A DNA stretch of 64,000 bases, taken from assembly GCA_964557575.1 (NCBI GenBank), contig CAZLBC010000017.1, positions 4,227 to 68,226 on the forward strand, written 5' to 3'. Positions 16,310-56,414 of this stretch are shown here, piece by piece. A program made the translations under genes and the position numbers. The stretch comes from an uncultured Planctomycetaceae bacterium. GTDB taxonomy: Bacteria > Planctomycetota > Phycisphaerae > SM23-33. The notes under the pieces are model-generated. The model saw only the letters and a list, made by a program, of their open reading frames with translations, was not told where the DNA came from and made no database searches. How positions within the stretch are numbered: the stretch's first letter is position 1; each line of letters starts with the position of its first letter.

Positions 16310-16534
16310 TCATAGTTCTGTTATTGCGGTTTTGCCCAACAGCACCACCAAGCATTTTTTGCCAAGAGCCGACAGCTCGCGTGGACTCGTTGCGACGGAG
16401 GGTGAGAAGATTGCCACCCTAGTTTCCACCCCAGCATCTGGCCCTGTTCCTCCCGGCGTTTTCACCGACATTCTCACCGATGTCCATGGGGCGCCAACAG
16501 GCGTTGCACTGAGGGTCACTGTACGCCAGTTCAT
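16310..16534 (-). pseudogene. Possible remnant of a gene start (HsdS-like MNWRTVTL...), degenerate after the first few codons
   Basis: ATGA overlap with the stop of the upstream gene; position after hsdM and an ATPase gene fits hsdS; the rest of the ORF is not recognisable. Confidence 0.3.
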
Positions 16535-17955
16535 GACGACCTTTCATGCTTTTCGTCCAAAAAAGCGCGGCCCTTGGGTGTTAGCCGGTACTTCTGTTTA
16601 CTGCTACGGGGCTTATCGGGAATTGTCATCTCGATGAATCCCGCATCGAGGGCAGGAACTAGGTATGCCGCGCGGAAGTGATCTTCATGCTTGAGTCCGA
16701 GAGCGTCCTGGATAGCCTGTCGTTTCATAGCTCCTTGCAGCACATCCAGAAGCCGAGCAACTTCCCCGGTGACTTCCCCGGTGACTTCCCCGGTAACTTG
16801 TGCGGTAACTTGTCCGGTCGCCTCACGATTTCCGGAGACGGTCTTCAGGTACTCCTCTGGAAACGCGAATTCGAGCCAAATCCCCTCCGCTTCACAGCGC
16901 ACTTTCGGCTTCGCATTTCCGGCCGCTTCGCAGGCCTCCACGATCCGCTCGTAACCGTCTCCCCAGGCCTCGATCATCCCGGCGCGGAAAAAGGCGTTGG
17001 CCACGTCCGGGTTGGCGGGGAGAGAGGGGTGCTTCCTGAACAGCCGGGCGGGGCTCAGTTCGGGCGGCAACTGTCCGGGATTCCAGAGCATGATCCTGTC
17101 GCGGTAGACGCTGATCTGGATCGGGGTGCCGGAAGCGTAGTCCTTGTGCACCGCCGCATTGTGGACCGCTTCGCGCAGCGCGACTTCGGGAACGGGGTAC
17201 GTCTCGACCCGCTGCCTTCCCCGGAAGTCGATCGCGGCGGCGGTGTACTTGGTGAGCAGCAGGTCCATGGTACCGTCCACCTGTGTGAACAGGTCCCCGT
17301 GGACTTCGTCCTGGTAGCGGATATCGCCGGGGCCGGCGAAAAAGCCGATCTTGATGTACGCGCCGGTGACGAACTCTTCCGGGTCGGAATGGAAAAGCAG
17401 CGCAGCGGCGCGCTTGAGCAAGCGCCCCTCCCGAAGCTTCAGCTTGTCGATCAACGCGGTATCACCGACCTTCAGATCCGCGGAGCGCATCCGCTTGCTG
17501 TCGGCTGCGCGTTTACGGAAGTCGGCAAGGGTCCGTCGGTTCAGTCCGCTGACCTTCAAGTGTGGAACCGGCACGCCATCCCAGTGCTTGCCCTGCTTTC
17601 CGAGGAGGAACCGGTCAAGTGCCGCGCCCTTGAGTTCCTGTGTGGTGCTGCCGCTGCGCTGGTAGTAGCGGCCGTGGTAACTGACGGGGTGTGGATACGC
17701 ATCGACCACGATCTCCACCGTCTTCCTGCCGGCCGACTTCCTGAGCCTCACCGCCGGCATGATCCCCAGCAGGTCGCGAATCTTGTTGGGCAGTTCCTGC
17801 ATGAGGCGGTCGGCATTCGACACGCCAACTACCAGCCCCTTGTCATCCTTGCCGATAACAAGGCGTCCGCCTTCAGCGTTGGCGAATCCGCACAGCACCT
17901 TAAGGTATTCGTCCCGCCAGGTTTCTTTCCACTCTATGTTCTGGTCTTCCGCCAT
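16531..17955 (-). CDS. AlbA_2 (Schlafen-like) + RecG-C/HATPase_c_4 + C-terminal winged-helix protein
   Basis: EDQNIEWK and LCGFANAEGG.LVIG, ALREAVHNAAVHKDY, P.NP..AN.FFRAG.IE.WG.G, MTIPDKPRSSKQKYRLT; AAAGGA RBS. Confidence 0.85.
   Translation of the reverse strand: MAEDQNIEWKETWRDEYLKVLCGFANAEGGRLVIGKDDKGLVVGVSNADRLMQELPNKIRDLLGIMPAVRLRKSAGRKTVEIVVDAYPHPVSYHGRYYQRSGSTTQELKGAALDRFLLGKQGKHWDGVPVPHLKVSGLNRRTLADFRKRAADSKRMRSADLKVGDTALIDKLKLREGRLLKRAAALLFHSDPEEFVTGAYIKIGFFAGPGDIRYQDEVHGDLFTQVDGTMDLLLTKYTAAAIDFRGRQRVETYPVPEVALREAVHNAAVHKDYASGTPIQISVYRDRIMLWNPGQLPPELSPARLFRKHPSLPANPDVANAFFRAGMIEAWGDGYERIVEACEAAGNAKPKVRCEAEGIWLEFAFPEEYLKTVSGNREATGQVTAQVTGEVTGEVTGEVARLLDVLQGAMKRQAIQDALGLKHEDHFRAAYLVPALDAGFIEMTIPDKPRSSKQKYRLTPKGRAFLDEKHERSS
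16760..16819. repeat. Five 12-bp tandem units inside the CDS, encoding T(G/A)(Q/E)V repeats
   Basis: acttccccggtg x2, acttccccggta, acttgtgcggta, acttgtccggtc. Confidence 0.9.
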
Positions 17956-17959
17956 TAAC

Positions 17960-18316
17960 TCAGTTTCCTTTGGCAACCACCCCGTCGAGCATTTCCACGA
18001 GCGCATCCATCTCGGTCCGGAAGTCGCCGCCGTCCGCCTCGAACTCGGCCCACAACTCCTTCAGTTCCATTGCGTCGCCGTCGCCGCCGGGCCGCCCGTT
18101 CCGCTTCACCTACCGCGGGATCGAGAGATTCGCGTCGTTTTTCAATACATCCTCCACCGCGTCGGCGGTCTCCTCGTCCCACACGTCACAGATGCGATTG
18201 AGGAACAAAAGCGGGAGGATGTACCCCTTCCAGTCGGTCCGATCCACGGCCGAACCGCGCAGGATATTGGCGGCTTCCCAGAGAGTCGATTTTAGGTCCT
18301 TGTTACTCGTCGTCAT
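17960..18316 (-). pseudogene. hsdM: Type I RM HsdM pseudogene: N-terminal helices fused in frame to the C-terminal tail, catalytic domain deleted, internal TAG
   Basis: LKSTLWEAANILRGSAVDRTDWKGYILPLLFL.RICDVWDEE joined directly to VEDVLKNDANLSIPR*VK...EMDALVEMLDGVVAKGN*; TAG at 18110-18112 where Tyr is expected. Confidence 0.8.
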
Positions 18317-23134: not shown

Positions 23135-26100
23135 ATGAAGCACATCGCGGCCGCGGTCGTTTTCTGCTCACTGATTCCCTGCCGGGCGCAGGACGCCCCG
23201 GCGGAAAAGATACTCGACGCCAGCGGCGTCCGCGGCGGCCTGGTCGTGTATATCGGCCCCGACGCCGAACGGGCGGCCGGCCTGCGGGGCGGCGGACGGT
23301 GCCTGGTCCAGATGCTCTGCACCGACGCTACCGCTGTCGAAGCGGCCCGGCGGCAATTGCGGGACCGGGGGATCTGCGGACCGGTGTCCGCGACCGCCTT
23401 CGACGGGGCCGCGCTGCCCTACGTCGACAACCTGGTGAACCTGGCGGTCGTCGGCGCGCGGTGCGCCGTCACGGCCGCCGAACTGAACCGGGTCCTGGCG
23501 CCCGGCGGGACGGCCATGGTCGCCCCGGGAGTCGACATCGCGGGCCTGCCGGCGGGCGGCGGAAACCGGCTGCCCGGCTGGAAGGGGCTGCGGAAGCCCG
23601 TCGACGACGAGCGCGACGAGTGGACTCACTACTACTACGACGCCGGCGGGAATCCCGTCTCCCGGGACACGATCGTCGGGCCGCCCCACCGCCTCCAGTG
23701 GGTCGGGAGCCCGCGGTGGGCCCGCCACCACGACCACCTGTCCAGCTTCAACGCGATGGTCTCCGCCGGCGGCAGGATCTTCTACATCTTCGACGAGGGC
23801 CCCACGTCGGCGATCCAGCTTCCCCCGGACTGGCGACTGACGGCCCGGGACGCCTACAACGGGACGGTCCTGTGGCGGCGGCGGATCGAGAACTGGAACA
23901 CCCACGTCTGGCAGCTCAAGAGCGGGCCCGCCCAGTTGCCCCGGCGCCTGGTCGCCGCCGGTGAGCGGGTCTACGTCACCCCGGGGCTCGGGAAGCCGGT
24001 GGTCGCGCTGGACGCGGCCACCGGTGAAACGGTGCGGACCTACGCGGGAACGGCCGGGACCGAGGAGATCATTTTCTCGCGGGGCGTCCTGCTGGCGGTG
24101 ATCGACCCGGCGGCCCCGGCCCGCCCCTGGTCGACGCAAGAGGCGTACGCATCCATTCGCGATGTCCGCCGGGAATCCGAACGCTGGCAGTGGCGGCCCG
24201 ACGACCGCCGCGTCACGGCGATCGACGCCGAAACGGGCACGCGGCGGTGGCAGGTGGCGACCCCCGTCGCGCCGATGACGCTCGCGGCGGACGCCGAACG
24301 GGTGTTTCTCCACGACGGGACGCGCGTCGTCTGCCTCGGCCGCAGCGACGGCGAGACGCGCTGGCAATCGAAGCCCCTGCCCCGCGCCGAGCCGATCCGC
24401 TCCTGGTTCGGCCCGCGGCTCCTGGTCGGCGGTGGGGTGGTGGTCTTCGCCGGCGGGGAGAAGATCGTCCGGCACCGGGGCGGGAAAGACACGATGACCG
24501 CCCTCGACGCGAAGACCGGGAAGGCGCTCTGGACGGCGCCGCATCCGCCCTCCGGATACGATTCGCCGGAGGACGTCTTCGTCGTCGACGGCCTGGTGTG
24601 GACCGCGCCCACCACCAACCGGCGGGACAGCGGCCGGTTCACCGCCCGGAAGCTGCAAACCGGGAAGGTCGTGCGGTCGTTTCCGGCCGACGACGGGAAC
24701 CACATGCCCCACCACCGCTGCCACAGCGCGCGGGCGACGGAACAATACATCCTCGCCTCGCGGACCGGGATCGAGTACGTGGACCTCGCCGCCGGACACT
24801 GGAACCGCAACGACTGGGTGCGGGGCGCGTGCCTCTACGGGATCATGCCGGCCAACGGGCTGACCTACGCCCCCTACCACAGTTGCGCCTGCTACATCCT
24901 CGCCAAGCTCAACGGCTTCAACGCCCTGGCAACCCGCCGGGGAGCTCAGCGGATGCCGGTGGAGGTCTCCGACGCCGGCCGCCTGGAGCGGGGCCCCGCC
25001 GGCGATGCCATCACGGCCGAAGTCCCCGCCGGGAAGGACGACTGGCCGACGTACCGCCGCGACCCGTCGCGCAGCGGCAGTACGCCCGCCGCGGTGCCCG
25101 CCCAACTCGCGCCGGCCTGGAAAAGCGAGATCGGCGGCCGGCTCAGCGCCCTGACCGTCGCCCGGGGGCGGGTCTACGCGGCCGCGGTCGACGTTCACAC
25201 CCTGCACGCGATCGACGCCGCGTCCGGCGAGACGGCCTGGACCTTCACCGCCGGCGCCCGGATCGACTCACCGCCGACCGTGTGGCGGGGGCGGGTGCTG
25301 TTCGGCGCTGCCGACGGCCGGGTCTACTGCCTGCGGGCCGCCGACGGCCGCCCGGCGTGGCGGTTCCGCGCGGCCCCCCGCGATCGGCGCATGACGGCGT
25401 GGGAGCAGGTCGAGAGCGCGTGGCCGGTCCACGGCGGCGTCCTGGTCCTGGAAGAGGACGGCGGCGGCACGCCCCGCGGCATCGTGTATGCCGTCGCCGG
25501 GCGGTCGCTGTTCCTCGACGGCGGCCTCCGCCTGCTCCGGCTCGACGCCCGCAGCGGCGCGAAGATATCCGAGAACGTCATGACCGACCGCCACCCGGAG
25601 ACGGGAAAACCGCTGGACGCGAAAATCGCCTGGCCGGACCTGCCGACCGCCCTGCCCGACATCCTCTCCTGCGACGGGACGAACATCTACATGCGGGCCC
25701 AGCGGTTCGACCGGGCGGGCAACCGGGTCGCCGTCGCGCCGCCGGGCGACTTCAAAAAGCAGGCCGGCGCGGGGGCCCACCTGTTCTGCCCGACCGGGTT
25801 TCTCGACGACGCCTGGTGGCACCGGTCCTACTGGCTATGGGGCAAAAACCCCGGGTCCGCCGCCGGCCGATGGTACGCCGCGGCCTACCACGCCCCCGTC
25901 GGCCGGATCATGTCGGTCAGCGGGGACTGCGTCTACGCCTTCGGGCGCACACCGCAGCACTTCCGGCAGACGACCTCCCTGGAGTATCACCTCTTCAGGG
26001 CGAAGAAGGAACCGAAGGTCGTGCAGACCGGGAAGCGGCGCAAGCGGTGGCACCCCGACCCCCACCGGCCGGTCTGCGACTGGTCGATCGAGATCCCCCT

Positions 26101-26407
26101 CCTCGGCCGCGCCCTCCTGGTCGCCGGCGGCCGGGTATTCGTCGCCGGCCCCCCGGACCTGGTCGACACGCGGGTGACGCAACGGAACTGGGGCGACGCC
26201 GAAAGCCAAAAACGGCTTGCCGCCCAGGCCGCGGCCCTGGCCGGCAAGAAGGGCGGGCTCCTGAATGTCTACGCCGCCGCGGACGGGACGGCGGTATCGT
26301 CGCTGCAACTCGCGTCGCCGCCGGTCTTCGACGGCCTCGCCGCCGCGGGCGGCCGGCTGTACCTCGCCGCCGTGGACGGCAGCGTCGTCTGCCTGCAGAA
26401 AAGGTAA
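23135..26407 (+). CDS. Large secreted protein: degenerate class I SAM-methyltransferase-like domain + two PQQ-like beta-propellers (paralog A)
   Basis: GGLVVYIG...LPYVDNLVNL...RVLAPGG; propeller repeats; DWPTYR.D..RSG; HHRC...RGAC...PANG...HSCAC cluster. Confidence 0.8.
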   Translation: MKHIAAAVVFCSLIPCRAQDAPAEKILDASGVRGGLVVYIGPDAERAAGLRGGGRCLVQMLCTDATAVEAARRQLRDRGICGPVSATAFDGAALPYVDNLVNLAVVGARCAVTAAELNRVLAPGGTAMVAPGVDIAGLPAGGGNRLPGWKGLRKPVDDERDEWTHYYYDAGGNPVSRDTIVGPPHRLQWVGSPRWARHHDHLSSFNAMVSAGGRIFYIFDEGPTSAIQLPPDWRLTARDAYNGTVLWRRRIENWNTHVWQLKSGPAQLPRRLVAAGERVYVTPGLGKPVVALDAATGETVRTYAGTAGTEEIIFSRGVLLAVIDPAAPARPWSTQEAYASIRDVRRESERWQWRPDDRRVTAIDAETGTRRWQVATPVAPMTLAADAERVFLHDGTRVVCLGRSDGETRWQSKPLPRAEPIRSWFGPRLLVGGGVVVFAGGEKIVRHRGGKDTMTALDAKTGKALWTAPHPPSGYDSPEDVFVVDGLVWTAPTTNRRDSGRFTARKLQTGKVVRSFPADDGNHMPHHRCHSARATEQYILASRTGIEYVDLAAGHWNRNDWVRGACLYGIMPANGLTYAPYHSCACYILAKLNGFNALATRRGAQRMPVEVSDAGRLERGPAGDAITAEVPAGKDDWPTYRRDPSRSGSTPAAVPAQLAPAWKSEIGGRLSALTVARGRVYAAAVDVHTLHAIDAASGETAWTFTAGARIDSPPTVWRGRVLFGAADGRVYCLRAADGRPAWRFRAAPRDRRMTAWEQVESAWPVHGGVLVLEEDGGGTPRGIVYAVAGRSLFLDGGLRLLRLDARSGAKISENVMTDRHPETGKPLDAKIAWPDLPTALPDILSCDGTNIYMRAQRFDRAGNRVAVAPPGDFKKQAGAGAHLFCPTGFLDDAWWHRSYWLWGKNPGSAAGRWYAAAYHAPVGRIMSVSGDCVYAFGRTPQHFRQTTSLEYHLFRAKKEPKVVQTGKRRKRWHPDPHRPVCDWSIEIPLLGRALLVAGGRVFVAGPPDLVDTRVTQRNWGDAESQKRLAAQAAALAGKKGGLLNVYAAADGTAVSSLQLASPPVFDGLAAAGGRLYLAAVDGSVVCLQKR

Positions 26408-26580: not shown

Positions 26581-29500
26581 ATGAAAACAGTGCATGGTTT
26601 TATTGTGATGCTGTCGGTTGCGGGCACCGCCTCTGCGGCTGCGGGGGCAGAGGCATGTGGCGTTGACGGCGGCATATACGTGCAGATCGGGTGTGATGAT
26701 CCCGACGCACTGACGGCATTGAAGGCCGACAACTGTATCGTCCAGGGACTGGCGACGGATCAAGTGAAGGTGCTCACGGCACGAAGGGCAATAGCGGCAA
26801 AAGGTATGTACGGGCCCGTTTCGGCCGAAGTCTATGACGGCACGGCGCTGCCCTATATATCCGATACCGTAAATCTTCTCGTGGTTGCCTGCGATAAATG
26901 CGCTGTCCCGGTGGAAGAGATTCAACGCGTTCTCTGCCCCGGCGGCGTTGCCCTGGTAAAGGGAAAAAAGATCGTCAAACCCGTCCCCGGCAACACGTCC
27001 GACTGGGGGCATTTTCTCTACGACGCTTCGGGCAATGCCGTTTCGCCCGATACTGCCGTCGACGTGCCCTACAACATCCAGTGGAAAGGCGGCCCGAAAT
27101 GGGCACGAAGCCACGATCGCCTGTCATCTCTCTGTTCGCTGGTTTCAAGTGACGGCAAGATCTTCTACATCTTCGACGAAGGCATGACTGAAGATTTCTA
27201 CTATCCGCCCAGGTGGAACATGATCTGCCGGGACGCGTACAACGGCATAGTCCTGTGGAAACGGGACGTCGGCAAATGGGAAGACCACTGGCGCGCGTTC
27301 AGATCCGGCCCGACACAGTTGAACCGGCGCGTCGTCTCTGCCGGCGACAAGGTGTACGCATCGCTCGGTCTCGGTCAGCCGATACAGGTTATAGATGCGG
27401 CAAACGGGAAGACCATTCGCACTCTTAAGGGAACCGAGGGTGCCGAGGACATCATAGAAAAAGACGGCGTCCTCTATCTCATCGCCCTTCCCTTCGACGG
27501 CGAGCCAGCGGATTACCAGTCGATGTTCAAAGGTCGTTCGCGGCCCGGGCTGCAGAAAAAGATCATGGCGGTCGATACTTCAACGGGCACAATCCTCTGG
27601 GCGAAGAACGACAAGGACACCCTCGGCATTCTGCCGGTTACGCTGATAGTGGATAAGAACAATGTCTATTTCCAGTCACGGAACACGGTCATCGCCCTGG
27701 ACAAGAAGACGGGCAAGCAGAAGTGGAAGACACTGAGGCGTTCGGCCGAGAGCAGACCGTCGAATTTTACGCCGGCACTTCTCGTCTACAAGGATGTCGT
27801 TATATCCGTTGACAATCTGCCGGGGTCGGGCAAGGTTAAAAAGAAGGGGAACATGCCCGCTGAAGGCGAACTCAGGGAACAGGAAAATATCCTCTGGTCT
27901 TTCAGCGCCGGGGCGACATCGATCAAGGGCGAGCTGGTGGCGATGGACGCGGAAACGGGAAAGAAACTGTGGACGACGGACGCCATGGCCGCCTACGGCG
28001 CGCAGATGGACTGCTTCGTAGTGAACGATCTTGTTTACGTAGGCAAAAAGGCCAGGAGACACACGGCGGACTTTGAGCAGGCGCACGATTACCGCACGGG
28101 TGAAGTCAGGAACGAGATACAGACGGCCTCTGCTTTCACCAGAACGCATCATCACCGCTGCTGGCGCAACAAGGCCACGTGCAGGTACATCATCATGGGA
28201 CGGACGGGTATCGAGTTGATCGGTTTCGACGGCACGCTCGCCATGCAGAATGCTTATATAAGGGGCAACTGCGAATACGGTATCATGCCGGCCAACGGCA
28301 TGATATATGCGCCGCCCCATTCCTGCGGGTGTTATATACAGGTCAAACTGAGCGGCTTCTTTGCGTTCTCGCCAAAGGACAAGAACCCCCTGGCCGGCCA
28401 GAAACCGGAGAACAAGCTCGCCAAGGGTCCGGCGTTTGCCCGGGTCTCGGGTCCCGGCAAGAATGCCGCGTCGGACTGGCCGACGTACAGGTGTGACGCC
28501 GCAAGGAGCGGAGGGACGGCATCACCGGTCGGTTCCGATCTCAAGCTCATCTGGAAGAAGAAACTGCCGGGAAGGATCACGGCTTCCGTTGTCGCCGGCA
28601 ATTCGGTCTTTGTGGCGGCGAGAGACAGCCACGTTCTCCATGCCCTGGACCGGGCGAGGGGGAAGACGGAATGGGAGTTCCGTGCCGGGGCGAGGATAGA
28701 TTCTCCTCCGACGATTATCGGCAATACGCTCTATTTCGGTTCCCGTGACGGCTGGGTCTACGCGCTCATCAAGGACTCGGGCGAACTGGCGTGGAAGTTC
28801 AGGGCCGCGAAATCTGATAGAAAAAACAGCGTGTACGGCCAGCTCGAATCCGTCTGGCCGGTTCACGGATCCGTGCTTTTCCTGGACGGTGCGATCTACT
28901 TCGCGGCCGGCAGATCGAGCTATCTTGATGACGGCCTGTATATCTACACGCTCGACTGTAAAACAGGCGGGATACTCATGGAAAAAAAGATGTGGTCCAG
29001 AAACCCGAAGACGGGCGACCAGGAGCCGAACAAGGGTCACAATCTGCCGGGCGGACTGAACGATATCCTCGCAAGCGACGGAGAGACAATCTTCATGCGC
29101 GATTTCCAGATGCACCTCGACAGCATTCCCGAAGGGTACACGATCAAGGGCGTACTGCCTTCGAATCTGAAGCCGCGCATCCACAATACTGCCGGATACC
29201 TCGACGACACCTGGGCCCATCGCACGTACTGGCAGTACGGGACGAAGCAGGGATCGGCCTACGGCGGATGGAAGAGACCCGGCACGTCCACCTACTCGGG
29301 GCGCATCATGGTGCGCGACGGAGACGATGTCTACGGCTACGGCAGAAGGGGTCTGGACAATGACTTCAGGTCGTCCCCGAAGCTCGGTTTTTACGGAAAA
29401 CGCGATATCCATCTGTACAGAGCATCCGTAGCGATTCAATCCAAATCGACTCCGACACCGGCACCGGCAAAGAAACCCGCGAAGAAATCAAAGAATAGAA

Positions 29501-29853
29501 ATAAGCGGTCTGGAAAGAAGCGGAACAAACGCATGGACAACTACGCCTGGCAGAACGACTGCCGCCTGCACGTCAGGTCCATGGTGCTGTCGAAAGACAA
29601 GGTGCTTGTGGCCGGTACGAAGGACATACTCCGCACGGAAGATATGTCGCGTGAGACCATAGCGAAACAGGAGAAGCTGCTGGGGGGCAACGAGGAGCAG
29701 TATTTTGAGATATACTCCAAGGAGGACGGAAAAAAGATCGCCGGTTACACGCTTCCCGGAAAGCCGATTTACGACGGCATGTCGATAGCGCGGGGGTACG
29801 TGTTTATTTCCACGGAAGACGATGAAATCCTGTGTTTCGGACCCGGCAAGTGA
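26581..29853 (+). CDS. Large secreted methyltransferase-like + PQQ-like beta-propeller protein (paralog B, visibly lower GC)
   Basis: Same architecture and motifs as paralog A (GGIYVQIGC, LPYISDTVNL, HHHRC...RGNC...PANG...HSCGC). Confidence 0.8.
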   Translation: MKTVHGFIVMLSVAGTASAAAGAEACGVDGGIYVQIGCDDPDALTALKADNCIVQGLATDQVKVLTARRAIAAKGMYGPVSAEVYDGTALPYISDTVNLLVVACDKCAVPVEEIQRVLCPGGVALVKGKKIVKPVPGNTSDWGHFLYDASGNAVSPDTAVDVPYNIQWKGGPKWARSHDRLSSLCSLVSSDGKIFYIFDEGMTEDFYYPPRWNMICRDAYNGIVLWKRDVGKWEDHWRAFRSGPTQLNRRVVSAGDKVYASLGLGQPIQVIDAANGKTIRTLKGTEGAEDIIEKDGVLYLIALPFDGEPADYQSMFKGRSRPGLQKKIMAVDTSTGTILWAKNDKDTLGILPVTLIVDKNNVYFQSRNTVIALDKKTGKQKWKTLRRSAESRPSNFTPALLVYKDVVISVDNLPGSGKVKKKGNMPAEGELREQENILWSFSAGATSIKGELVAMDAETGKKLWTTDAMAAYGAQMDCFVVNDLVYVGKKARRHTADFEQAHDYRTGEVRNEIQTASAFTRTHHHRCWRNKATCRYIIMGRTGIELIGFDGTLAMQNAYIRGNCEYGIMPANGMIYAPPHSCGCYIQVKLSGFFAFSPKDKNPLAGQKPENKLAKGPAFARVSGPGKNAASDWPTYRCDAARSGGTASPVGSDLKLIWKKKLPGRITASVVAGNSVFVAARDSHVLHALDRARGKTEWEFRAGARIDSPPTIIGNTLYFGSRDGWVYALIKDSGELAWKFRAAKSDRKNSVYGQLESVWPVHGSVLFLDGAIYFAAGRSSYLDDGLYIYTLDCKTGGILMEKKMWSRNPKTGDQEPNKGHNLPGGLNDILASDGETIFMRDFQMHLDSIPEGYTIKGVLPSNLKPRIHNTAGYLDDTWAHRTYWQYGTKQGSAYGGWKRPGTSTYSGRIMVRDGDDVYGYGRRGLDNDFRSSPKLGFYGKRDIHLYRASVAIQSKSTPTPAPAKKPAKKSKNRNKRSGKKRNKRMDNYAWQNDCRLHVRSMVLSKDKVLVAGTKDILRTEDMSRETIAKQEKLLGGNEEQYFEIYSKEDGKKIAGYTLPGKPIYDGMSIARGYVFISTEDDEILCFGPGK

Positions 29854-34759: not shown

Positions 34760-35932
34760 ATGAGACATTCGACAGCATTCGCTACAATCACACTCGCCCT
34801 ATCCGTATTCACGTGTGCCGCCGGCGCTGAGCCGTTCAGCCCCACCGCCAAGCTTGAGGGGGCAGGACCTGCTCTGGCGTTCTCGCCTGACGGTTCGCTC
34901 CTCGCACGCGCTGGTAACAAGATGATCCGGTTCCTTGACACGAAGACGTGGTCGGTTATTCGAGAGATCGATACAGCTGAGAAAATTGGCGGTTTTGCAC
35001 ATCCGACCCGCCACCGCGACAACCTTGCCTTCTCTCCCGACGGCAAGCTCCTGGCCGCAGTGACGGAGGTCGGCAACCGCACGCGGATATCCAGCGTGAA
35101 CATCGTGGGTTTCTGGGACATCAAGTCGGGACGGCGAGTTAACGAGGTGTTGGACCAGGAGTTGATCCGTTTGAATAAGGAAAAGAAACTTCCTGAGTAC
35201 AATCTCTCGTGGGTGGCATTCCATCCAAGCGGCAAGCTGGTCTATGCCGCTAACAGCAGCGGAATGCCGGTCATCGCCTGGAAGACAGGACAGCCCGTAA
35301 AATCGGGCAAATTGAAGGACCATACATGGGGAGGCGGTCCCGTCCAGCGAATCGTCATGTCGACCAAGGGTAGCGCCATCGCGTTTGGCTGTACTATGAA
35401 GACAATGCTTGTGCGCGTTTCTGGAGGTCGATTGTTGACACCATCGCCCATCCCGGCGACTGGCTCTATCGGCTTCTCCGCAAACGGTAACGTATTGGCA
35501 GTAGCTGGTTTTTGCGGCGAATTCAGAAGTCCGTCACCCGGCCGACCGAAGAAAAGACCACCAGGCATGAGACGCAATCCTAAGGTCCCTCCAGCGAGTC
35601 GTCATTCACCACCGTCAAGTGCCAAGGATACCGCGACCCTCACGGTGTGGAACGTGAACCCCGGCAAGCTCATTGAAAAATGTGAGCAGTCCATGCCCAT
35701 GACTGCAGTGGCGGTTTCACCAAAGGGCGATTATGTCGCCGTCGGCGATAAGTCAGGACGCATCAGGCTCTGGTGCGTGTCGGCAAAGCGTGTAGTCGCG
35801 GAATCGGACAGCTTCCGTGGCAGTAACGTCCACATTCACACACTCCAGTTCCATCCAAAAGGAAAGTGGCTCGTGTCGTCCGGCTCTCCGAGGATGGCAT
35901 GCCGCTGGGACGTGTCCCAATGGGTACCATAG
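34760..35932 (+). CDS. Secreted WD40-repeat protein
   Basis: LAFSPDG x2, VAFHPSG, VAVSPKG, IRLW, LQFHPKG...WDV; signal peptide. Confidence 0.85.
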   Translation: MRHSTAFATITLALSVFTCAAGAEPFSPTAKLEGAGPALAFSPDGSLLARAGNKMIRFLDTKTWSVIREIDTAEKIGGFAHPTRHRDNLAFSPDGKLLAAVTEVGNRTRISSVNIVGFWDIKSGRRVNEVLDQELIRLNKEKKLPEYNLSWVAFHPSGKLVYAANSSGMPVIAWKTGQPVKSGKLKDHTWGGGPVQRIVMSTKGSAIAFGCTMKTMLVRVSGGRLLTPSPIPATGSIGFSANGNVLAVAGFCGEFRSPSPGRPKKRPPGMRRNPKVPPASRHSPPSSAKDTATLTVWNVNPGKLIEKCEQSMPMTAVAVSPKGDYVAVGDKSGRIRLWCVSAKRVVAESDSFRGSNVHIHTLQFHPKGKWLVSSGSPRMACRWDVSQWVP

Positions 35933-35994: not shown

Positions 35995-36093
35995 AAAAAA
36001 CGCCGGGAGCAGGCCCGGGCGGACACGAATTGCGAATCCCTCCAGTCTTTTCGCAACTCGTTTTACCGTCCGGCCCGGCCTGCCTGCCCGGCG
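35995..36093 (-). terminator. Long GC-rich hairpin followed by a U6 tract (minus strand)
   Basis: Arms 36001-36036 and 36050-36093; A-run on the plus strand at 35995-36000. Confidence 0.65.
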
Positions 36094-36139
36094 CCAGAAC
36101 CCTCCTCTTCTGCATCTTCGTCTGCGTCTCCCTCGTATA
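35995..36139 (-). ncRNA. Candidate sigma54-dependent small RNA (~145 nt)
   Basis: Predicted start about 12 nt downstream of a -24/-12 promoter; purine-rich 5' segment; long hairpin 36001-36093 with loop AAGACUGGAGGGA; ends in U6; no convincing ORF. Confidence 0.5.
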
Positions 36140-36149
36140 CTATATGTTG

Positions 36150-36166
36150 AGCAAACGGTGTGCCAA
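36150..36166 (-). promoter_or_regulatory. sigma54 (-24/-12) promoter
   Basis: TTGGCAC-ACCGT-TTGCT, with GG and GC exactly 10 nt apart. Confidence 0.7.
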
Positions 36167-36284
36167 AACTAACTTAAAACACGTTCGTCGATCGTATAAT
36201 TTCATATCTAACTGTAATATAAAGTTTTATATTTTATTTCCAACTGCATTTTTCGCCCGATCATTTCGCCGAACCTTGAAAAGT

Positions 36285-36328
36285 GGGGAAATGTACCCGG
36301 TTTTTTTACCCACCTGGGTACATTTCCC
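36285..36328. promoter_or_regulatory. Palindromic candidate upstream activator sequence (bEBP site) 1
   Basis: ggggaaatgtaccc-N17-gggtacatttccc; 120-165 bp upstream of the sigma54 site with an AT-rich tract between; overlaps the region just after the PPC gene stop. Confidence 0.55.
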
Positions 36329-36366
36329 ACCCCATACCATCGTCGTCATCGTTCAGGCGTTCGATC

Positions 36367-37605
36367 TTACCTTCCCGCGAATGCGAGTATCCGGGCGGCC
36401 GATTCGCAGCCGCCCCGGTCGCTGATCCTGAGGATGACGTTCCCCGACGCCGCCTGGTCGAGGGGAACCCGCCAACTGACGCTTCCACTGCTTGCCGGAA
36501 GCACGGCCAGCCGGTTCCAGGTCCGGCCGGTATCCCACGAGACCTCGATAACGACCGTGCGAATATCGGCCGCGGCGTCCCAGCGAACCAGGTAGGTCCC
36601 GCCCGGAGCGACCGTCGCGTCCGCGGCCGGCCCGATGATACGGATCCGGTCGGCCGCCGCGGTCGGCGGATCAGGTTCGAGCCGGTCGGGAGCGGGGCGC
36701 AGACGCCGGTTGGTATCCTCGATCACCGCGGCCAGCGAGACATCTTCGAATGCCGGATCGCCGACGAGCCGGGCGTAATACGTACCGCTCACCGGCCGTG
36801 AAATCGTGACCGCCTGGACGGTGCCGTCGCGGCTCGATGCGTGGTCGTTATCCGCGACGGTCGGCAGGGCCTCGCGGCTGACCAGCAGCCGGCAGTTACC
36901 CCTGCCGCCGCGGGTCAGGAAGGCGACCCCGCGGGCGTTGCGGGGAACCTCCACGCGAAAAAAGTCGGTGCACCGGCGGCCGCCGCAGAGGTCGTCGACC
37001 CGCCGCCCCGACCGCAGCGTCGTGAGCCTGATACCCCGCGCGTCGAGGCGATCGTCGCGATCGCGGTAACGGTCACGGTAGCGATCATCGTCATCGTCAT
37101 CATCATCGCCGCCGCCCCGGGAGGCAGCCAGTTCGCAGAGCCCGCCGATAATGGCCGGCGCCGCACGGGCTATCATGTCACCCGCACCGGGACCGCGTGG
37201 GACGTTGTACCGGGCGACCAGCCGCGCGCCGGCCCCGTACGCCGTGACCCCCTGGACGAGGATCTGCCAGCGGCCGGGCGCGGGGTTGTGAACACATACC
37301 GTCTCGTTGTTTCCCGGGTTCATGCTGGCCGGCCGCCACGGGTGGCCGGCGTGCCTGACGCGCAGGGTCAGGTTGCCGGCGCCGCCGTGCGTCTGGACCT
37401 CGAAGTAGTCCGCGCCGCGGGGGACGTCGATGTGTGCCCACCGCGAGCTGCCGGCCGGGCCGTGTATGGCGATCGGCCGATCGTGTCTCAGCCGCACGCC
37501 CTGGGACCGGGCGGTTTCAGGGAACAGGGAAACGACGGCTATCGATGCGGCCGCCGCAACGAGAAACAACCCTTTACGCGCTGCAAACATCATTTCCGCA
37601 CTCAT
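36367..37605 (-). CDS. Secreted protein with two PPC (pre-peptidase C-terminal) domains, an Asp/Arg-rich linker and a C-terminal Ig-like domain; no protease domain
   Basis: THGGAGNLTL...GNNETV...P.PGRW.I.V.G and TRGGRGN..L...G..QAVTI..P.SGTYY.RL.G repeats; AAAGGAG RBS; signal-like N-terminus. Confidence 0.7.
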   Translation of the reverse strand: MSAEMMFAARKGLFLVAAAASIAVVSLFPETARSQGVRLRHDRPIAIHGPAGSSRWAHIDVPRGADYFEVQTHGGAGNLTLRVRHAGHPWRPASMNPGNNETVCVHNPAPGRWQILVQGVTAYGAGARLVARYNVPRGPGAGDMIARAAPAIIGGLCELAASRGGGDDDDDDDDRYRDRYRDRDDRLDARGIRLTTLRSGRRVDDLCGGRRCTDFFRVEVPRNARGVAFLTRGGRGNCRLLVSREALPTVADNDHASSRDGTVQAVTISRPVSGTYYARLVGDPAFEDVSLAAVIEDTNRRLRPAPDRLEPDPPTAAADRIRIIGPAADATVAPGGTYLVRWDAAADIRTVVIEVSWDTGRTWNRLAVLPASSGSVSWRVPLDQAASGNVILRISDRGGCESAARILAFAGR

Positions 37606-37658: not shown

Positions 37659-37675
37659 CGCAACGTCCGTGCCAA
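37659..37675 (-). promoter_or_regulatory. sigma54 (-24/-12) promoter of the PPC gene
   Basis: TTGGCAC-GGACG-TTGCG, near-consensus; predicted start about 43 nt before the ATG. Confidence 0.8.
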
Positions 37676-37796
37676 ACGAGCGAGCCCTGCCCAAAATAAC
37701 TGCGATGCGATAATTAAGTGTATTTATTTAAAGCAATTAAACGATTTCCCCTTTCCCGTTGCGTGATACGATTCCCCCGCAAGAGCGACGTAAAAC

Positions 37797-37840
37797 GGGG
37801 TATGTTACCCGCGCGGATTTCCCACCTGGATATTCACCCC
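37797..37840. promoter_or_regulatory. Palindromic candidate upstream activator sequence 2, homologous to 36285-36328
   Basis: ggggtatgttaccc-N17-ggatattcacccc; shares CCCACCTGG and the 17-nt spacer with copy 1. Confidence 0.55.
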
Positions 37841-37890
37841 CGATTTCTGTACCATAGACAATCCACCCGTACATCGAGGAGATACCAGCA

Positions 37891-40812: not shown

Positions 40813-40841
40813 TTGATAGTTGCAATAAATACAACTATCAT
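40813..40841 (+). promoter_or_regulatory. sigma70-type promoter with an overlapping inverted-repeat operator (AbiEi autoregulation candidate)
   Basis: TTGATA(40813-18)-17 bp-TATCAT(40836-41); TGATAGTTG-N9-CAACTATCA at 40814-40840; ATG at 40849, probably leaderless. Confidence 0.65.
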
Positions 40842-40848
40842 GCTTAGT

Positions 40849-41454
40849 ATGAACAACATAGAGTACACGTCTGAGCCGATTGTTGACACACTCCGGATGA
40901 AGCAATGGCTGGGGGATATCGGCGACAAGCGCGGGAAGATTGCCCGAATGATACACACCGGGCAGTTGCTTCAACTCCGGCGAGGGCTGTACGCAACGCG
41001 GCGCGATATCAATCCCTATTGTCTCGCCGCGAGCATCTACGGCCCTTCGTATATCAGCTTCGAAACCGCCCTTTCTTATCACGGGTTGATTCCCGATGCG
41101 GTCTATGAAATTACGTCGGCAACCCTGAAACGGTCGCGCGAGTTTGAAAATGACTTCGGGCGCTATCGATACCGTGCAATCCCGCGAAAGGTGTATCCCC
41201 TTGGAATTGAACGCTCAACAGAGGCAAGTATTCCATTCCTGATCGCATCGCCGACCAAGGCGTTGTGCGACCGTATTGCACTTGAGCCCGGAATGCGGTC
41301 TATGTCGGATGTGCGACAATGGGCCGAATTGATGCGACTGAATGATGAACACCGGTTCGATCCTGCGGTCCTGAACGCCTGCGCTGAGAACTACAGGCGC
41401 CCCGCTGTGCGACTCCTCGGGCGCACCATCGAAAAGTATGGAGGATTGTCATGA
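40849..41454 (+). CDS. abiEi: Type IV TA antitoxin AbiEi-like transcriptional regulator
   Basis: LLQLRRGLY, PSYISFETALSYHGLIP, ASPTKALCD motifs. Confidence 0.85.
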   Translation: MNNIEYTSEPIVDTLRMKQWLGDIGDKRGKIARMIHTGQLLQLRRGLYATRRDINPYCLAASIYGPSYISFETALSYHGLIPDAVYEITSATLKRSREFENDFGRYRYRAIPRKVYPLGIERSTEASIPFLIASPTKALCDRIALEPGMRSMSDVRQWAELMRLNDEHRFDPAVLNACAENYRRPAVRLLGRTIEKYGGLS

Positions 41455-42320
41455 ACAAGGCGATTGAAGACATGTTGCGTCCTTACGCCCCGGTTACGCC
41501 ACTGGATTGGATGTATGCTATTCGCGAAATAGTCCAGGAAATCGCCCTTCTCGGTTTCTGGCGCAGCGGGTTCTTCGAGCAAGCCGCCTTCTGCGGCGGA
41601 ACCGCGTTGAGGATTTTCCACGGGCTGAACCGCTTCTCGGAAGACCTCGATTTCTCACTGGGCAGCGAAGAGGACGAGGCGCGTCTTGAATCCGCCCTTT
41701 CGGCACTGGAGGACGAACTGGCGGCCTGGGGCTTTTCATTCGAAGCCGAGCCGAAGTCTTCCGGCGAACGAACCGGAATCGAGTCGGCTTTCTTGAAGGG
41801 AAACACCCGTATTAACCTGTTGAACATCGGAGTGCCCGAGGAACTGTGGCGACACTTCCCTCGCAACCGGAAGATCTCGATCAAACTCGAACTGGACACC
41901 GCACCACCGCCTTGTGCGTTGACCGAGGTCAAAACCCACCTGTTGCCGACCCCGTTTCAGGTGCGATTGTACGACCTTCCCAGTCTCTTTGCCGGAAAGC
42001 TGCACGCCCTGCTCTTTCGAGACTGGAAGAGCCGGGTAAAGGGCCGTGACTTCTTTGATTTTGTCTGGTTTATCGGACGAGGCGTGCCGGTCAACCTGCC
42101 GCATCTGGAGGCGAGGATACTGCAGAGCGGAAACCTGAAAACCAAAACACTGGACCTTTCGGGCCTGCAGTCGCTGCTGATCGAGCGATTTGAGAAGGTC
42201 GATCTTGCCGCGGCGGCCGGCGAAGTCCGCCCCTATCTTCGTGACGCACGCGAACTTACGCTGTGGTCCGAGAAATTCTTCAGGGACCTGGTCCCCGGGT
42301 TGACTGAGGCCCGCCCATAA
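41451..42320 (+). CDS. abiEii: Type IV TA toxin AbiEii-like nucleotidyltransferase
   Basis: FCGGTALRIFHGLNRFSEDLDFS, LFAGKLHALL, KGRDFFD; ATGA overlap with the antitoxin. Confidence 0.9.
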   Translation: MNKAIEDMLRPYAPVTPLDWMYAIREIVQEIALLGFWRSGFFEQAAFCGGTALRIFHGLNRFSEDLDFSLGSEEDEARLESALSALEDELAAWGFSFEAEPKSSGERTGIESAFLKGNTRINLLNIGVPEELWRHFPRNRKISIKLELDTAPPPCALTEVKTHLLPTPFQVRLYDLPSLFAGKLHALLFRDWKSRVKGRDFFDFVWFIGRGVPVNLPHLEARILQSGNLKTKTLDLSGLQSLLIERFEKVDLAAAAGEVRPYLRDARELTLWSEKFFRDLVPGLTEARP

Positions 42321-52206: not shown

Positions 52207-53394
52207 ATGGCTGACACACTCCTGATCGTTGACGACAACCCGGTCGACAGGAAGATCCTGGGGGGCGTGCTCAAAAAGGAGGGATATGACCTGGTCGTCG
52301 CCGGGGACGGCGAGGCCGCCCTGGCCGCCGTGGGGAAACAGCGACCCGACCTGATTCTCCTCGACGTCATCATGCCCGGCCTGAGCGGGTACGAGGTGTG
52401 CGGCCGGCTCAAGGCGGATGCCGCAACGGCCGACATACCCGTGCTGTTCCTCTCCGGCCTGTCGGAGGCAAAGGACAAGGTAAAGGGACTGAACGCGGGC
52501 GGGCTGGACTACATATCCAAGCCGTTCGACACGGAAGAGGTGCTGGCCCGCGTCCGCGCGCACCTGGAACTGCTCCACCTGAATCGCGACCTGCAGCGCG
52601 CCAACCGGGAACTGGAGGCCCGGCAAAAGCAGGTGGACAAGGACCTGGCGGCCGCCGCCGAAATTCAGCGGACCCTGCTGCCCCGGCGGAAGGCGTCGAT
52701 CAGCACTATCGACATGGCCTGGAAATTCCTGCCGTGTGAAACGGTCGGCGGAGACCTGTTCAACGTCCTTCGCCTGGACGAAAATCACTGGGCCGTATAC
52801 ATGATAGACGTTACCGGCCACGGCGTTCCCGCCGCCATGGTTTCCGTGTCGGTCTCCCACCTGATGGACCCGAACAACGGCCAACTGGTCAAAACCGCGA
52901 TCCACGAGCCCCCCTACTACCGGCTCGCCTCACCCGCGGAAGTGATTACCGGGCTGGACGAAGCCTATTCCCCCGGTCGGCTCGACAAGCTTTTCTCCGT
53001 CAGCTACATGGTCCTCAACGTGCGGACCGGAGCACTGCAGTACAGCAACGCCGCGCATCCCTATCCCCTGCTGGTTCGCGCGACGGGAAAGACGGAACTG
53101 CTCAGGATCGGCGGCACCATGGTCGGCATGGGAGGCGTCATGGCATTCGAGGAAGGAACGGTTGCGCTGGAACCGGGGGACAAGCTGTTTGTGTACACGG
53201 ACGGGATAACGGAGCACCGAAACGAAGAAAAGGATTTTTTCGGAGAACAGCGGCTGTACGACGAAATCACCGGGTTGCGGACCAGGCCGGTCGAAAAAAT
53301 CGTCGAGCGGGTCATGGATGCCGTCATGACATTTTCCCGCCGGAAACCGCGCGACGATGTCAGTCTGCTGGGATTCGAGTATCTCGGCGGGTAA
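52207..53394 (+). CDS. Response regulator with PP2C/SpoIIE (RsbU-like) phosphatase output
   Basis: REC (VDD, LLDVIMP, YISKPF); coiled coil; GGDLF, DVTGHG, YTDGITE, DDVSL. Confidence 0.92.
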
Positions 53395-53453
53395 CGAAAA
53401 CATCGGGTGCGGATTTCGATCGTTGCGACGGGTGTTGCCGCCGAGGTGAAGCC

Positions 53454-56414
53454 GTGAGAATCAAGATCGGTGACAAACTGCTGCTGGTCGCCGCCATAGG
53501 AACGGCCGTCACCGCCGTCCTCGGCGCGGGGTCGGTTTATGTCATCGGCGGCTCGTTGCGCAGAGACCGCATCAATGCCCGCCTCTCTTCAATCGCGCAA
53601 TCAAAGGCCGGCCGCGTCCGGTCGCTGCTCCAGGAATACGCCAACCGCGTCCGCCTCTTCGCCGCATCGGAACTTCTCCGCGCCGACCCGGTCGACGACA
53701 CGCTCGGCGGGCGGCTGGAATCACTCGCCGCGCCGTTCCCGGATATCGCCGCGCTGACACTCGTCGGCCCGGACGGGACGATCACCGCCTCCACCGAACG
53801 CGGGGAGCGGGGAACCGACCGGTCCCGCGATCCCGTCTTCCGCAACGGGCTGACAGCGATCTTCGTCAACGGTATCCACCGGTCGCAAACGACGGGGCAC
53901 AGGGTCATAACCATAGCGGCGCCGCTGCGCGATCCCGTCACCAAACAAGGGCGGGGTGTACTCACGGCGACGATCCGGACAACGCGGCTCGACGAGATCA
54001 TGACCGAACACACGGGGCTCCAGGAGACGGGTGAATCCTACCTGGTCAACCGGGACGGCCTGATCCTCACCCCCACGCGGCACGCGGCGAAACCGCCCCT
54101 GTCCCTGCACGTCGATTCGAAAAATGTCCGGGAGTGGACAGGACGATCCGGAACGGCGGCGGCCGGCGGAGAGATTCCCGAATACCGGGATTACCGGGGC
54201 GTGACCGTCATCGGCACGCATGCGCCCCTTCCCGACAGGGGGTGGTGCGCCTGCGTAAAAATAGATTCGACAGAGGTGTACGAACCGATTGTGCGGCTGA
54301 CCCGGGCCGTATTTATTCTCACCCTTCTTCTGAGCACGGTGGTCACGTCGTTTGTCAGGTCATTTATGCGCCACATACTCAAACCCATACGCCAGTTGCG
54401 GCACGGTTCCCGCCAGATCGGCTCGGGCGACCTGGCGTACCGGCTCGACATACAGACCGGGGACGAGATCGAGGAGCTTGCCCAGGAATTCAACCGCATG
54501 GCGGCGCGCCTGTCCGAAGCACGGGAAGGCCTGGAGCGAAAGGTGGCGGAACGAACCAGGGAACTCGAACAGGCCAAGGGCCTGGCCGAGGAGGCGGCAC
54601 AATCAAAGGCCGATTTCCTCGCGAACATGAGCCACGAAATCCGTACCCCCATGAACGGCGTCATCGGCATGGCGAACCTGCTGCTGTCCGCCGACCTGAC
54701 CGGAGAGCAGTGCGATTACGTCAAGACGATAAAAAACAGCGCCGAATCCCTCCTGGACATCATCAACGATATCCTCGACATCTCGAAGATCGAGGCCGGA
54801 CGGCTGGTCCTGGAGTCGGCGGTCTTCGACCCCCGGTCGGTAATCGAGGACATCAACGACCTGCTCGCCCTGCGAGCCCAGGACAAGGGTCTCGAGTACG
54901 CCTGCCGGATCGCCCCGGACGTCCCCGCGCAGGTCAGGGGCGACCCCTTTCGGCTGCGACAGGTCCTGATCAACCTCCTCGGCAACGCGATCAAGTTCAC
55001 CGAGCACGGTGAGGTGGCCCTGCTGGTCTTCCGGGAAAGGGCGCGGGACGGAACGGTCCTGCTGCGATTCGACGTCAGGGATACCGGCATCGGTATCGAC
55101 GCCGATAAAATAGATTCGCTGTTCGATACCTTCAGCCAGGAAGACGCCTCCACGACGCGCAGGCACGGCGGCACGGGCCTGGGGCTGAGCATAGCAAAAA
55201 ATATTACGGAGATGATGGGCGGGAGACTCTCCGTCACCAGCAGCAAGGGCGACGGATCGACGTTCTCGTTTACGGCCGCATTCGAGAGCGTGCCCGCCGT
55301 TGAGACGGGCCGGCGGCCGCCCGCCTGTCTTCGGGATCTCTGCGTCGCCGTCGTCGAGGAAAACGAGACCAACCGCCTGATGATCCGCGATATGCTTCTG
55401 TCCTGGGGCTGTCGCGTCATCGACGTGCCGGACATCGAATCGCTGCTGTCGGACCGCGACAATGCACAAGACCCGATCGGCGTCACGCTTCTCGGCCCTC
55501 CCCTGCACGGTGACGAACATCCCGACTGCGGCCGAATCGTACCGATGACGACCATGCGCCGGCGCACCGGCGGCTCCCTCGCCAAGCCGATCAAGCGGGC
55601 CGCGCTCCGGGACCTGCTGGTTTCCATCATGAAAGGCGGAGACGCACAACCGACACGGGACGCGCCCGCCGTTTCCGACATTTCATTCGTCGGCAATCGC
55701 GTACTGCTGGTCGAAGACAACCCCGTCAACCAGAAGGTCGCGTGTTCCCTGCTGGAACAATTCGGCTGCACCGCCACGCTCGCCGCCACCGGGCGCGAGG
55801 CACTGGAAGCCCTCGAATCGGCATCATTCGATTGTGTCCTGATGGACGTGCAGATGCCCGGCATGGACGGCTTCGAAGCGACGCGGCGCATACGCGCATC
55901 GGGACAGGCGTACGACGGTGTCCCCATCATCGCCATGACCGCGCACGCCCTGGAGGGCGACCGGGAACGGTGCGCGGCGGCGGGAATGGACGATTACGTC
56001 TCGAAACCCGTGAACCCCGCGGTCCTCGCGAAGGTTATGGACAAGTACCTCGATCGGACACCGGGGGGGCTTGACCGGCATGCGATTCTGCAGCGCGTCG
56101 GCGGGGACGAGGACCTGATGCGGGAGGTCATCGGCATTTTCCTCGACGACATACCGGGGCGTATCCGAGCGATCGAAAAGGCGGTCGAACGGGGCGACCC
56201 GGACACCGTGCAAGCGGAGGCGCATGCCGTAAAGGGATCGGCGGGGAATATCGGCGCGTCCGGTCTTTACGATGCGGCGGGGCGACTGGAAACCGCCGCA
56301 AAAGCGGGGGGGGAAACCGCGGCTGCCTTTCTCGCGGTGCGGCAGCAGTTCGAACTGCTGCGGCCGTCGCTCGGGAACATGGTGGAGCCCGCCGGCGAGC
56401 GGGAAAACGAATAA
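53454..56414 (+). CDS. Hybrid sensor kinase: Cache - HAMP - HisKA - HATPase - pseudo-REC - REC - Hpt
   Basis: GTG start; GESYLVN Cache motif; [17 protein letters not shown]; [11 protein letters not shown]; GGTGLGL; [11 protein letters not shown]; [10 protein letters not shown] Hpt. Confidence 0.93.

Follow-up and report, generated by a model that had tools for sequence, protein, structure and literature searches.

A candidate non-coding RNA, about 140 nt long and plausibly sigma-54-dependent, in the gap between two converging orphan genes of an uncultured planctomycete

The question raised by the locus described here is whether a gap between two converging protein genes contains a gene of its own, the product of which would be an RNA. 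The gap, 434 bp in length, lies in a stretch of 64,000 nt (the window, 64 kb in all) from contig CAZLBC010000017.1 of an uncultured Planctomycetaceae bacterium, and it separates a PPC-domain gene on the minus strand from a WD40-repeat gene on the plus strand. A reading made earlier from the letters of the DNA (the original prediction) had placed in this gap a small RNA (sRNA) unit, consisting of a -24/-12 promoter on the minus strand aimed at no protein gene, a purine-rich 5' segment, a long hairpin and a U6 terminator. The gap contains an exact match to a sigma-54 promoter, an intrinsic terminator, no credible open reading frame (ORF) between the two, and an upstream block that is shared with the promoter of the PPC gene. 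From these features we infer transcription, its drive by sigma-54 rather than by sigma-70, and a mode of action, and we regard it as plausible that the unit yields a non-coding RNA of about 140 nt under sigma-54 control. That this RNA is real and is transcribed independently of the neighboring genes is a tentative conclusion, to which we give somewhat less than an even chance.

An exact promoter core, TGGCACACCGTTTGC, was found at 36165-36151 of the minus strand, with the GG of the -24 element and the GC of the -12 element at exact spacing, and no gene lies downstream of it, as had been predicted. More than 2 kb downstream of the unit is free of any minus-strand gene, the minus-strand ORFs there being antisense to plus-strand ORFs that include the Pfam-supported WD40 gene. 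The motif TGGCAC-N5-TTGC is rare in this DNA: the two strands of the window contain 2 exact matches (0.07 expected), at least two matches were obtained in none of 100 shuffled sequences, and no extra site appeared when 1 mismatch was allowed. Both matches are intergenic and on the minus strand, 1.5 kb apart. The second one is located 25 nt 5' of the long ORF of the PPC gene and about 55 nt 5' of its called ATG, and is followed by a 43-nt leader and the Shine-Dalgarno sequence AAGGAG of that gene. Because this second core precedes a real gene, the motif marks at least one correctly placed promoter-type site in this organism.

Both promoters can also be read as sigma-70-like promoters that overlap the sigma-54 core. 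At the candidate locus the TATAGT box of this reading occupies 36144-36139 of the minus strand, and the PPC promoter shows TTGGCA-16 nt-TATAAC in the same register, with TATAAC six nt downstream of the core. The extended form common to the two promoters (37660-37684 and 36139-36166) is TTTGGCAC-N5-TTGC-N6-TATA, that is, the sigma-70-like promoters overlap as they do in enterobacterial glmY/glmZ. The start is predicted at about 36138-36140 for sigma-54 (12 nt past the GC) and at about 36132-36133 for the sigma-70-like promoter, so that under either reading the RNA is predicted to begin within 36132-36140 and to be 138-146 nt long.

The distance from the promoter to the U6 tract is about 140 nt, within the 50-300 nt that applies to stand-alone sRNA genes, and the unit has its own promoter and its own intrinsic terminator without a plausible ORF between them. 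The purine boxes, the 93-nt hairpin, its apical loop and the U6 tract are all found on the minus strand at the places originally assigned to them (Table 1). A terminator scan reported a stem at 36018-36003 followed by CGTTTTTTAT, whereas the plus-strand sequence after the hairpin is CCAGAACCCTCC, without a U run. The hairpin, which includes the inverted repeats I1, I3 and I4, counts among its pairs 2 G-U pairs that are exclusive to the minus-strand RNA; the plus-strand form has 32 pairs and a predicted energy of -55.5 kcal/mol. We folded the 100 nt upstream of each T5+ run in the window, and among the 74 hairpin-before-T-run sites obtained in this way the hairpin ranked first, being both the most stable and the longest unbranched. 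The 161-nt candidate as a whole folds at -70.9 kcal/mol (z = -3.85), and none of 200 shuffled sequences was as stable.

The 5' tail differs from this structured part. A fold of 51 nt of the tail gave -4 kcal/mol (z = +0.18), and the 45-50 nt at the 5' end are single-stranded in the prediction. The purine content of the tail is 78% over 37 nt, which was matched by only 93 of the 127,928 windows on both strands. Its GGA motifs have an unpaired probability of 0.82-0.89, and the exposed Shine-Dalgarno-like boxes are GGAGG (two copies) and GAGGGAG (one copy).

Table 1. Coordinates of the features discussed in the text, numbered from the first nucleotide of the window.
Feature	Position	Strand	Details
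Sigma-54 -24/-12 core TTGGCACACCGTTTGC	36151-36166	-	exact TGGCAC-N5-TTGC
Sigma-70-like promoter TTGGCA-16 nt-TATAGT	36139-36166	-	promoter scan, 10/12 matches
Predicted transcript 5' end	36132-36140	-	canonical promoter geometry
Purine-rich 5' tail, predicted unstructured	36094-36139	-	boxes GAGGGAGA 36134-36127 and AGAGGAGGG 36108-36100
Terminator-stem hairpin, long, imperfect	36001-36093	-	93 nt, 35 pairs, -59.3 kcal/mol
Apical loop AAGACUGGAGGGA	36049-36037	-	13 nt, predicted unpaired
U6 tract	36000-35995	-	completes intrinsic terminator; minus strand only
AT-rich spacer with several A/T tracts	36167-36281	-	GC 0.40 (window 0.64)
Dyad, candidate enhancer site for a bacterial enhancer-binding protein (bEBP)	36282-36333	-	perfect 13-nt arms
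Direct repeats GGTGGG(A/T)AA	36331-36323 and 36314-36306	-	157 and 140 nt upstream of TGGCAC
PPC-side GGTGGG(A/T)AA 9-mer	37826-37818	-	143 nt upstream of PPC promoter TGGCAC
Paralogous regulatory region of PPC gene	37660-37860	-	core 37674-37660; similar block about 37795-37845
PPC-domain gene	long ORF 37635-36367	-	called product 412 aa, start ATG 37605
WD40-repeat gene	34760-35932	+	Pfam-supported; converges on PPC gene

The region upstream of the candidate promoter carries further elements. The palindrome that had been noticed there is present, its arms (36286-36298 and 36316-36328) being 13 nt each and 100% complementary; folded as RNA, this dyad gave -31.5 kcal/mol (z = -3.56). The 9-mer GGTGGGWAA occurs 4 times in the window (0.82 expected), and three of the four copies lie in the upstream regions of the two promoters. 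The repeats and the dyad together span 117-168 bp upstream of the candidate promoter and have counterparts at a matching distance from the PPC promoter; the two promoters are too few instances to define a binding motif. A 71-nt block, the center of which is about 145 bp upstream, was slid over the whole window on both strands, and its best match was the PPC upstream region, with a score of 17 over a background of 7.3 +/- 1.4 and at a matching distance to the promoter. No co-oriented gene ends at the PPC-side block, and therefore nothing there needs a terminator. The AT-rich tract between the dyad and the promoter was also confirmed: GC at 36100-36299 is 0.40, in contrast to 0.64 window-wide, and A-tracts occur at -143, -89, -71 and -64, counted from the -24 GG. 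A site for IHF, which often bends the DNA at sigma-54 promoters, was not found: the consensus WATCARNNNNTTR has no match with 1 mismatch or fewer in either upstream region.

These features may be combined as follows. The gap would contain a self-contained minus-strand transcription unit, in which an enhancer-dependent sigma-54 promoter, possibly together with an overlapping basal sigma-70-type promoter like that of glmY in E. coli, would initiate near the predicted 5' end, and in which a very strong intrinsic terminator would halt transcription at about 35995 to give the non-coding RNA. The single-stranded purine tail and the hairpin loop would together display three Shine-Dalgarno-like GGAG(G) boxes. 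Because the same upstream block stands at the same distance from both sigma-54 promoters, the RNA would most likely be co-induced with the secreted PPC protein by one activator. The upstream elements concerned in this co-regulation would be the GGTGGGAAAT blocks, and the evidence that one activator serves both promoters is good but not conclusive. As for the mode of action, we favor a trans-acting base-pairing RNA, the purine boxes of which would pair with pyrimidine-rich, anti-Shine-Dalgarno-like stretches of target RNAs and might, for example, open self-inhibited 5' leaders. Activation of this type, in which an sRNA opens the self-inhibited 5' leader of its target, is known as 'anti-antisense' activation. 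A protein sponge is less likely than such a base-pairing RNA.

Several results weigh against this proposal and have to be set beside it. The overlapping sigma-70-like reading at both loci weakens the claim that sigma-54 is used exclusively. Neither rpoN nor a bEBP or other sigma-54 activator domain was found among the ORFs of the window, and csrA was likewise not found among them; sigma-54 promoters, bEBP genes and csrA have all been reported in Planctomycetota (PMC12316311). The dyad begins 34 nt past the stop codon of the PPC gene and has CUUUUC after it, so that a weak terminator belonging to this gene is an equally possible reading of it, although the terminator scan did not call it as one; the hairpin, in turn, could be a mere shared terminator of the converging genes. 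According to the original prediction the palindromes upstream of the two promoters are homologous. The similarity in sequence is real, as the block score shows, but as a palindrome the copy on the PPC side falls short of significance (z = -0.85); moreover, a stringent local alignment of the two entire upstream regions was not significant, and the similarity emerged only under the permissive block search. With regard to targets, the duplex energies of the RNA with the 39 translation-initiation regions of the window were within background (the best one at the 1st percentile), and pyrimidine-rich anti-Shine-Dalgarno-like leaders are almost absent in the window; with only 39 genes, this is a weak test of targets. 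Finally, no homologue of the RNA locus was obtained in any search, and hence neither conservation nor covariation lends support.

The searches for relatives were as follows. Rfam gave no match for the whole window at gathering thresholds, and for the locus at E up to 10 it returned noise only (miRNA, snoRNA and ybhL-type models, 11-18 bits against cut-offs of 38-83). The only other occurrence of the locus that was found is in one 6.5-kb Logan contig from SRR7048227, which is 100% identical. The nearest relative of the adjacent glycoside hydrolase GH97 is 63% identical, and the contigs that carry it contain no PPC gene, no synteny and no sigma-54 core. A scan of GTDB genomes, in a collection without the source genome, for CCAGGTGGGWAA-N130-155-TGGCAC-N5-TTGC gave 7 matches, near a rough chance estimate, and the 2 that were inspected both fall within apparent coding sequence. 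A metagenome scan for TTGGCAC-N5-TTGC-N95-125-CTGGAGGGA gave 79 matches, none of which aligned past the pattern (scores of 29 or less); some of those inspected resemble sigma-54-type promoters ahead of a gene's Shine-Dalgarno sequence. Comparison of the locus with all fetched loci by nhmmer (E up to 10) gave nothing, nor did blastn against plasmids and phages or an exact 23-mer scan of viral contigs. The absence of homologues says little, because the nearest relatives are distant and the pattern scans demand exact matches.

Two metagenomic arrangements were also observed. In L042 (Ga0307378_10042839, 3700-4200, minus strand) and L083 (Ga0307379_10113618, 820-1010, minus strand), a palindrome GGGGCGTTTTG...CAAAACGCCCC lies upstream of a sigma-54 core TTTGGCACGGGATTTGC, and after this core come about 250 nt of GGAG-rich, apparently non-coding sequence and then a 26-bp perfect inverted repeat containing CCAGGTG. 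The internal hairpin differs between L042 and L083, and the flanks shown are identical. This may be another sigma-54-driven non-coding RNA, from an organism of 70% GC, and it is not alignable to the RNA of the window. In L026 (Ga0209913_1000021, 2258-2400, plus strand), TTGGCACGCTCTTTGC is followed by about 110 nt, a clean terminator (AAAGGCGTC...GACGCCTTTTTT) and then directly by a Shine-Dalgarno sequence and an ATG, an arrangement that resembles a sigma-54-dependent leader, attenuator or sRNA of an unrelated organism.

The main rival explanation assumes no independent RNA at all. The hairpin would then serve the PPC gene, and perhaps also the WD40 gene, only as a terminator or to stabilise the 3' end, and the promoter-like sequence, which happens to stand beside this shared terminator, would be a silent remnant left by duplication of the PPC regulatory region. 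The two regulatory regions do look paralogous, both in the upstream block and in the extended promoter form, which fits a duplication without any need of function, and conservation was not demonstrable in the searches made. In addition, the palindrome after the PPC stop codon has a U4 tail only and was not called a terminator, so that PPC transcripts may continue to 35995. The retention of all 10 core positions at exact spacing would not be expected of a relic, nor would an AT-rich spacer and a repeated GGTGGGWAA kept at an enhancer-like distance. The U tract and the G-U pairs favor the minus strand, but they are equally compatible with read-through from the PPC gene and are therefore indecisive. 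On balance we consider a silent relic unlikely, while giving it more weight than a passing doubt.

It is also possible that the RNA is real but acts only in cis, as an antisense to the 3' end of the WD40 mRNA or its read-through, or by transcriptional interference. No more than 63 nt separate the WD40 stop codon from the point where the candidate RNA ends. The plus-strand hairpin lacks a U run, and WD40 transcripts probably enter or cross the hairpin, where they would be perfectly complementary to the RNA. The strong minus-strand terminator, however, ends the RNA short of the WD40 coding sequence, there is no functional tie between the WD40 and PPC genes, and the exposed motifs of the tail and the loop would be superfluous for a purely antisense role. 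We regard a role restricted to cis as improbable.

A different objection concerns the sigma factor. If a housekeeping sigma-70-type promoter (TTGGCA-16-TATAGT) were used rather than the sigma-54 one, the RNA would be constitutive. The number of positions matched in the promoter scan and the corresponding TTGGCA-16-TATAAC of the PPC promoter speak for this reading, but TTGGCA arises automatically from the -24 element, and the reading leaves unexplained the identical C after TTGGCA and the spacer TTGC at both loci, as well as the shared block about 145 bp upstream and the AT-rich spacer. Replacement of sigma-54 by a housekeeping factor therefore appears quite improbable, a shade more so than an action in cis.

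The original prediction had also offered a sponge that titrates CsrA/RsmA by showing GGA motifs, and this proposal fared poorly. The prediction leaves four of the five GGA motifs unpaired, of which the apical loop contains two, and the report of csrA in Planctomycetota mentioned above is in its favor. GGA is not enriched, however (5 copies, with 5.58 +/- 1.58 expected from dinucleotide shuffles, P = 0.76), and AGGA occurs once (1.32 expected); only GGAGGG is mildly over-represented (2 versus 0.29 expected, P = 0.02). The display of GGA in loops is limited to one 13-nt loop in place of many short GGA loops, and Rfam gave no family match, and so none to models of the CsrB/RsmY/RsmZ type. In bacteria other than the gamma-proteobacteria, Planctomycetes included, control of CsrA is ascribed to FliW and not to sRNAs (PMC4682653). 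We consider a CsrA sponge very unlikely.

Least credible of all is that the unit encodes a 46-aa protein (ATG 36115 to TAA 35975, minus strand) with the GAGGGAG box as its Shine-Dalgarno sequence, for although the ATG of this sole ORF lies 12 nt past GGGAG and motifs of the Shine-Dalgarno type precede 18 of the window's 39 called ORFs, the ORF crosses the whole -59 kcal/mol hairpin and stops 20 nt past the U6 tract, its GC content at third codon positions is about 65%, 3 of its 5 arginine codons are the rare AGG, and a HMMER search of 1.84 billion representative proteins returned 2 weak, multi-stretch, low-complexity-like matches within proteins of 297 and 899 aa. A frame-2 reading of the purine tail (E-G-D-A-D-E-D-A-E-E-E...) looks codon-like and was rejected, because downstream of the predicted 5' end it lacks a start codon. 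The unit is accordingly taken as non-coding, as far as its sequence can tell.

How, then, does the proposed sigma-54-dependent RNA compare with known systems? In its architecture it most closely resembles glmY/glmZ and, more loosely, qrr, the likeness being one of promoter architecture only. The glmY/glmZ genes have a sigma-54 promoter, GlrR sites, IHF and an overlapping sigma-70 promoter (PMC3045617). Like GlmY/GlmZ, the candidate would be a stand-alone sRNA gene with a sigma-54 promoter and (predicted) activator sites more than 100 bp upstream, with a sigma-70-like promoter that overlaps the first and might initiate at nearly the same position, with one promoter architecture at two loci of a genome, and with an RNA that ends in a terminator hairpin. 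Unlike them, it shows no similarity in sequence or structure and no Rfam match; it lacks TGTC-N10-GACA sites, the IHF consensus and the RapZ/glmS context; it comes from a different phylum; and its second locus is a protein gene and not a paralogous sRNA. The Qrr sRNAs of Vibrio, which depend on LuxO and sigma-54 (PMC13501541), are similar to the candidate as predicted here in being short (of the 100-nt class, approximately), dependent on sigma-54 and a bEBP, ended by a terminator and trans-acting, with a single-stranded conserved 5' region (PMC13501541). The candidate differs from them in having no Rfam match to Qrr, in being single-copy in the available sequence and in showing no sign of Hfq involvement. 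The composition of the Qrr seed, too, is unlike the purine-rich, Shine-Dalgarno-like seed of the candidate. Because it fits neither their Rfam models nor their activator motifs, the candidate is a member of neither the GlmY/GlmZ nor the Qrr family.

A comparison with sRNAs of 3' untranslated regions (3'UTRs) is also instructive. The candidate lies directly downstream of the PPC gene and is co-oriented with it, the only strong terminator after the PPC gene is the hairpin of the RNA, and one alternative sigma factor is predicted for both the candidate and the upstream mRNA. MicL and DapZ are 3'UTR sRNAs that have their own promoter and share the terminator of the upstream mRNA. GlnZ is a sigma-54-linked 3'UTR sRNA (PMC13501541). 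In contrast to such RNAs, the candidate has its promoter 200 nt past the stop codon and not within the coding sequence, it needs no processing, and a possible separate terminator of the PPC gene lies in between. The arrangement may be of the 3'UTR type to the extent that PPC transcripts also terminate at the hairpin of the RNA. With CsrB/RsmY/RsmZ the candidate shares a non-coding nature and GGA at unpaired positions, including a hairpin loop; it differs from them, beyond the GGA counts and the single long hairpin already described, in a promoter that is of the sigma-54 type and not activated by UvrY/GacA. We therefore describe the RNA as what would be a new sequence family, from a single genome, of an already known kind of RNA, the sigma-54-driven sRNA.

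The genes around the gap give the locus its setting. The window, with a GC content of 0.64, contains many sulfatases and glycoside hydrolases as well as DUF4159, ThuA and PQQ-propeller proteins. The closest named relatives of the adjacent GH97 are metagenome-assembled genomes of Planctomycetota, at 55% identity, with Anaerohalosphaera, Lacipirellulaceae and Verrucomicrobia lower down in the list of matches. The PPC protein (36367-37605, minus strand) carries a signal peptide and two PPC-like regions; in addition, it contains a D8 run that precedes RYRDRYRDRDDR, as well as a C-terminal domain. Among 5.8 billion proteins it has 1 remote homologue (23% identity), and for the WD40 protein no match exceeds about 25-27% identity over most of its length; judged by these searches, the two flanking genes are orphans.

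Other parts of the window were noted in passing. The tandem ORFs at 23135-26407 and 26581-29853 (plus strand), each of 1090 aa and matching the same PQQ/BamB-like beta-propeller Pfam families, are probably paralogues, and they lie in polysaccharide-utilisation-type surroundings with GH129, GH106, GH97 and several sulfatases. At 40813-42320, a gene for an AbiEii-family nucleotidyltransferase toxin (41451-42320, plus strand) overlaps by 4 nt an upstream ORF of 213 aa without a Pfam match, which is probably an AbiEi-type partner. A single protein at 16531-18006 (minus strand) combines Schlafen AlbA_2, HATPase_c_4 and Fic-like C-terminal domains, an architecture like that of a defence protein or a regulator. 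At 52207-56414 (plus strand), a REC-SpoIIE (PP2C) response regulator precedes a hybrid histidine kinase of the Cache-HAMP type that carries REC and Hpt domains.

Sigma-54-driven sRNAs such as GlmY/GlmZ and Qrr are known mainly from proteobacteria, and the top matches of a literature search on sigma-54-dependent sRNAs deal with other phyla only. To our knowledge, almost nothing is established about the sRNAs of Planctomycetota and of related polysaccharide-degrading bacteria of the Planctomycetes-Verrucomicrobia-Chlamydiae group. The most far-reaching interpretation would make the candidate the first sigma-54/bEBP riboregulator of Planctomycetota, co-induced with an orphan secreted PPC protein and acting as a Shine-Dalgarno mimic, the three GGAG(G) boxes of which would titrate a pyrimidine-rich partner (anti-Shine-Dalgarno-like leaders, a C-rich sRNA or an RNA-binding protein) and so couple an extracellular signal to translation; taken in full, this is a long shot. 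At present the locus is of value as a well-formed prediction from a single genome and as a candidate to look for in metatranscriptomes or in a complete genome. If the RNA is transcribed, it would give a minimal handle on an enhancer-dependent regulon, one orphan secreted protein and one RNA, in an uncultured lineage, and it would also yield a candidate motif for activator binding and an RNA that exposes unusual Shine-Dalgarno-like motifs.

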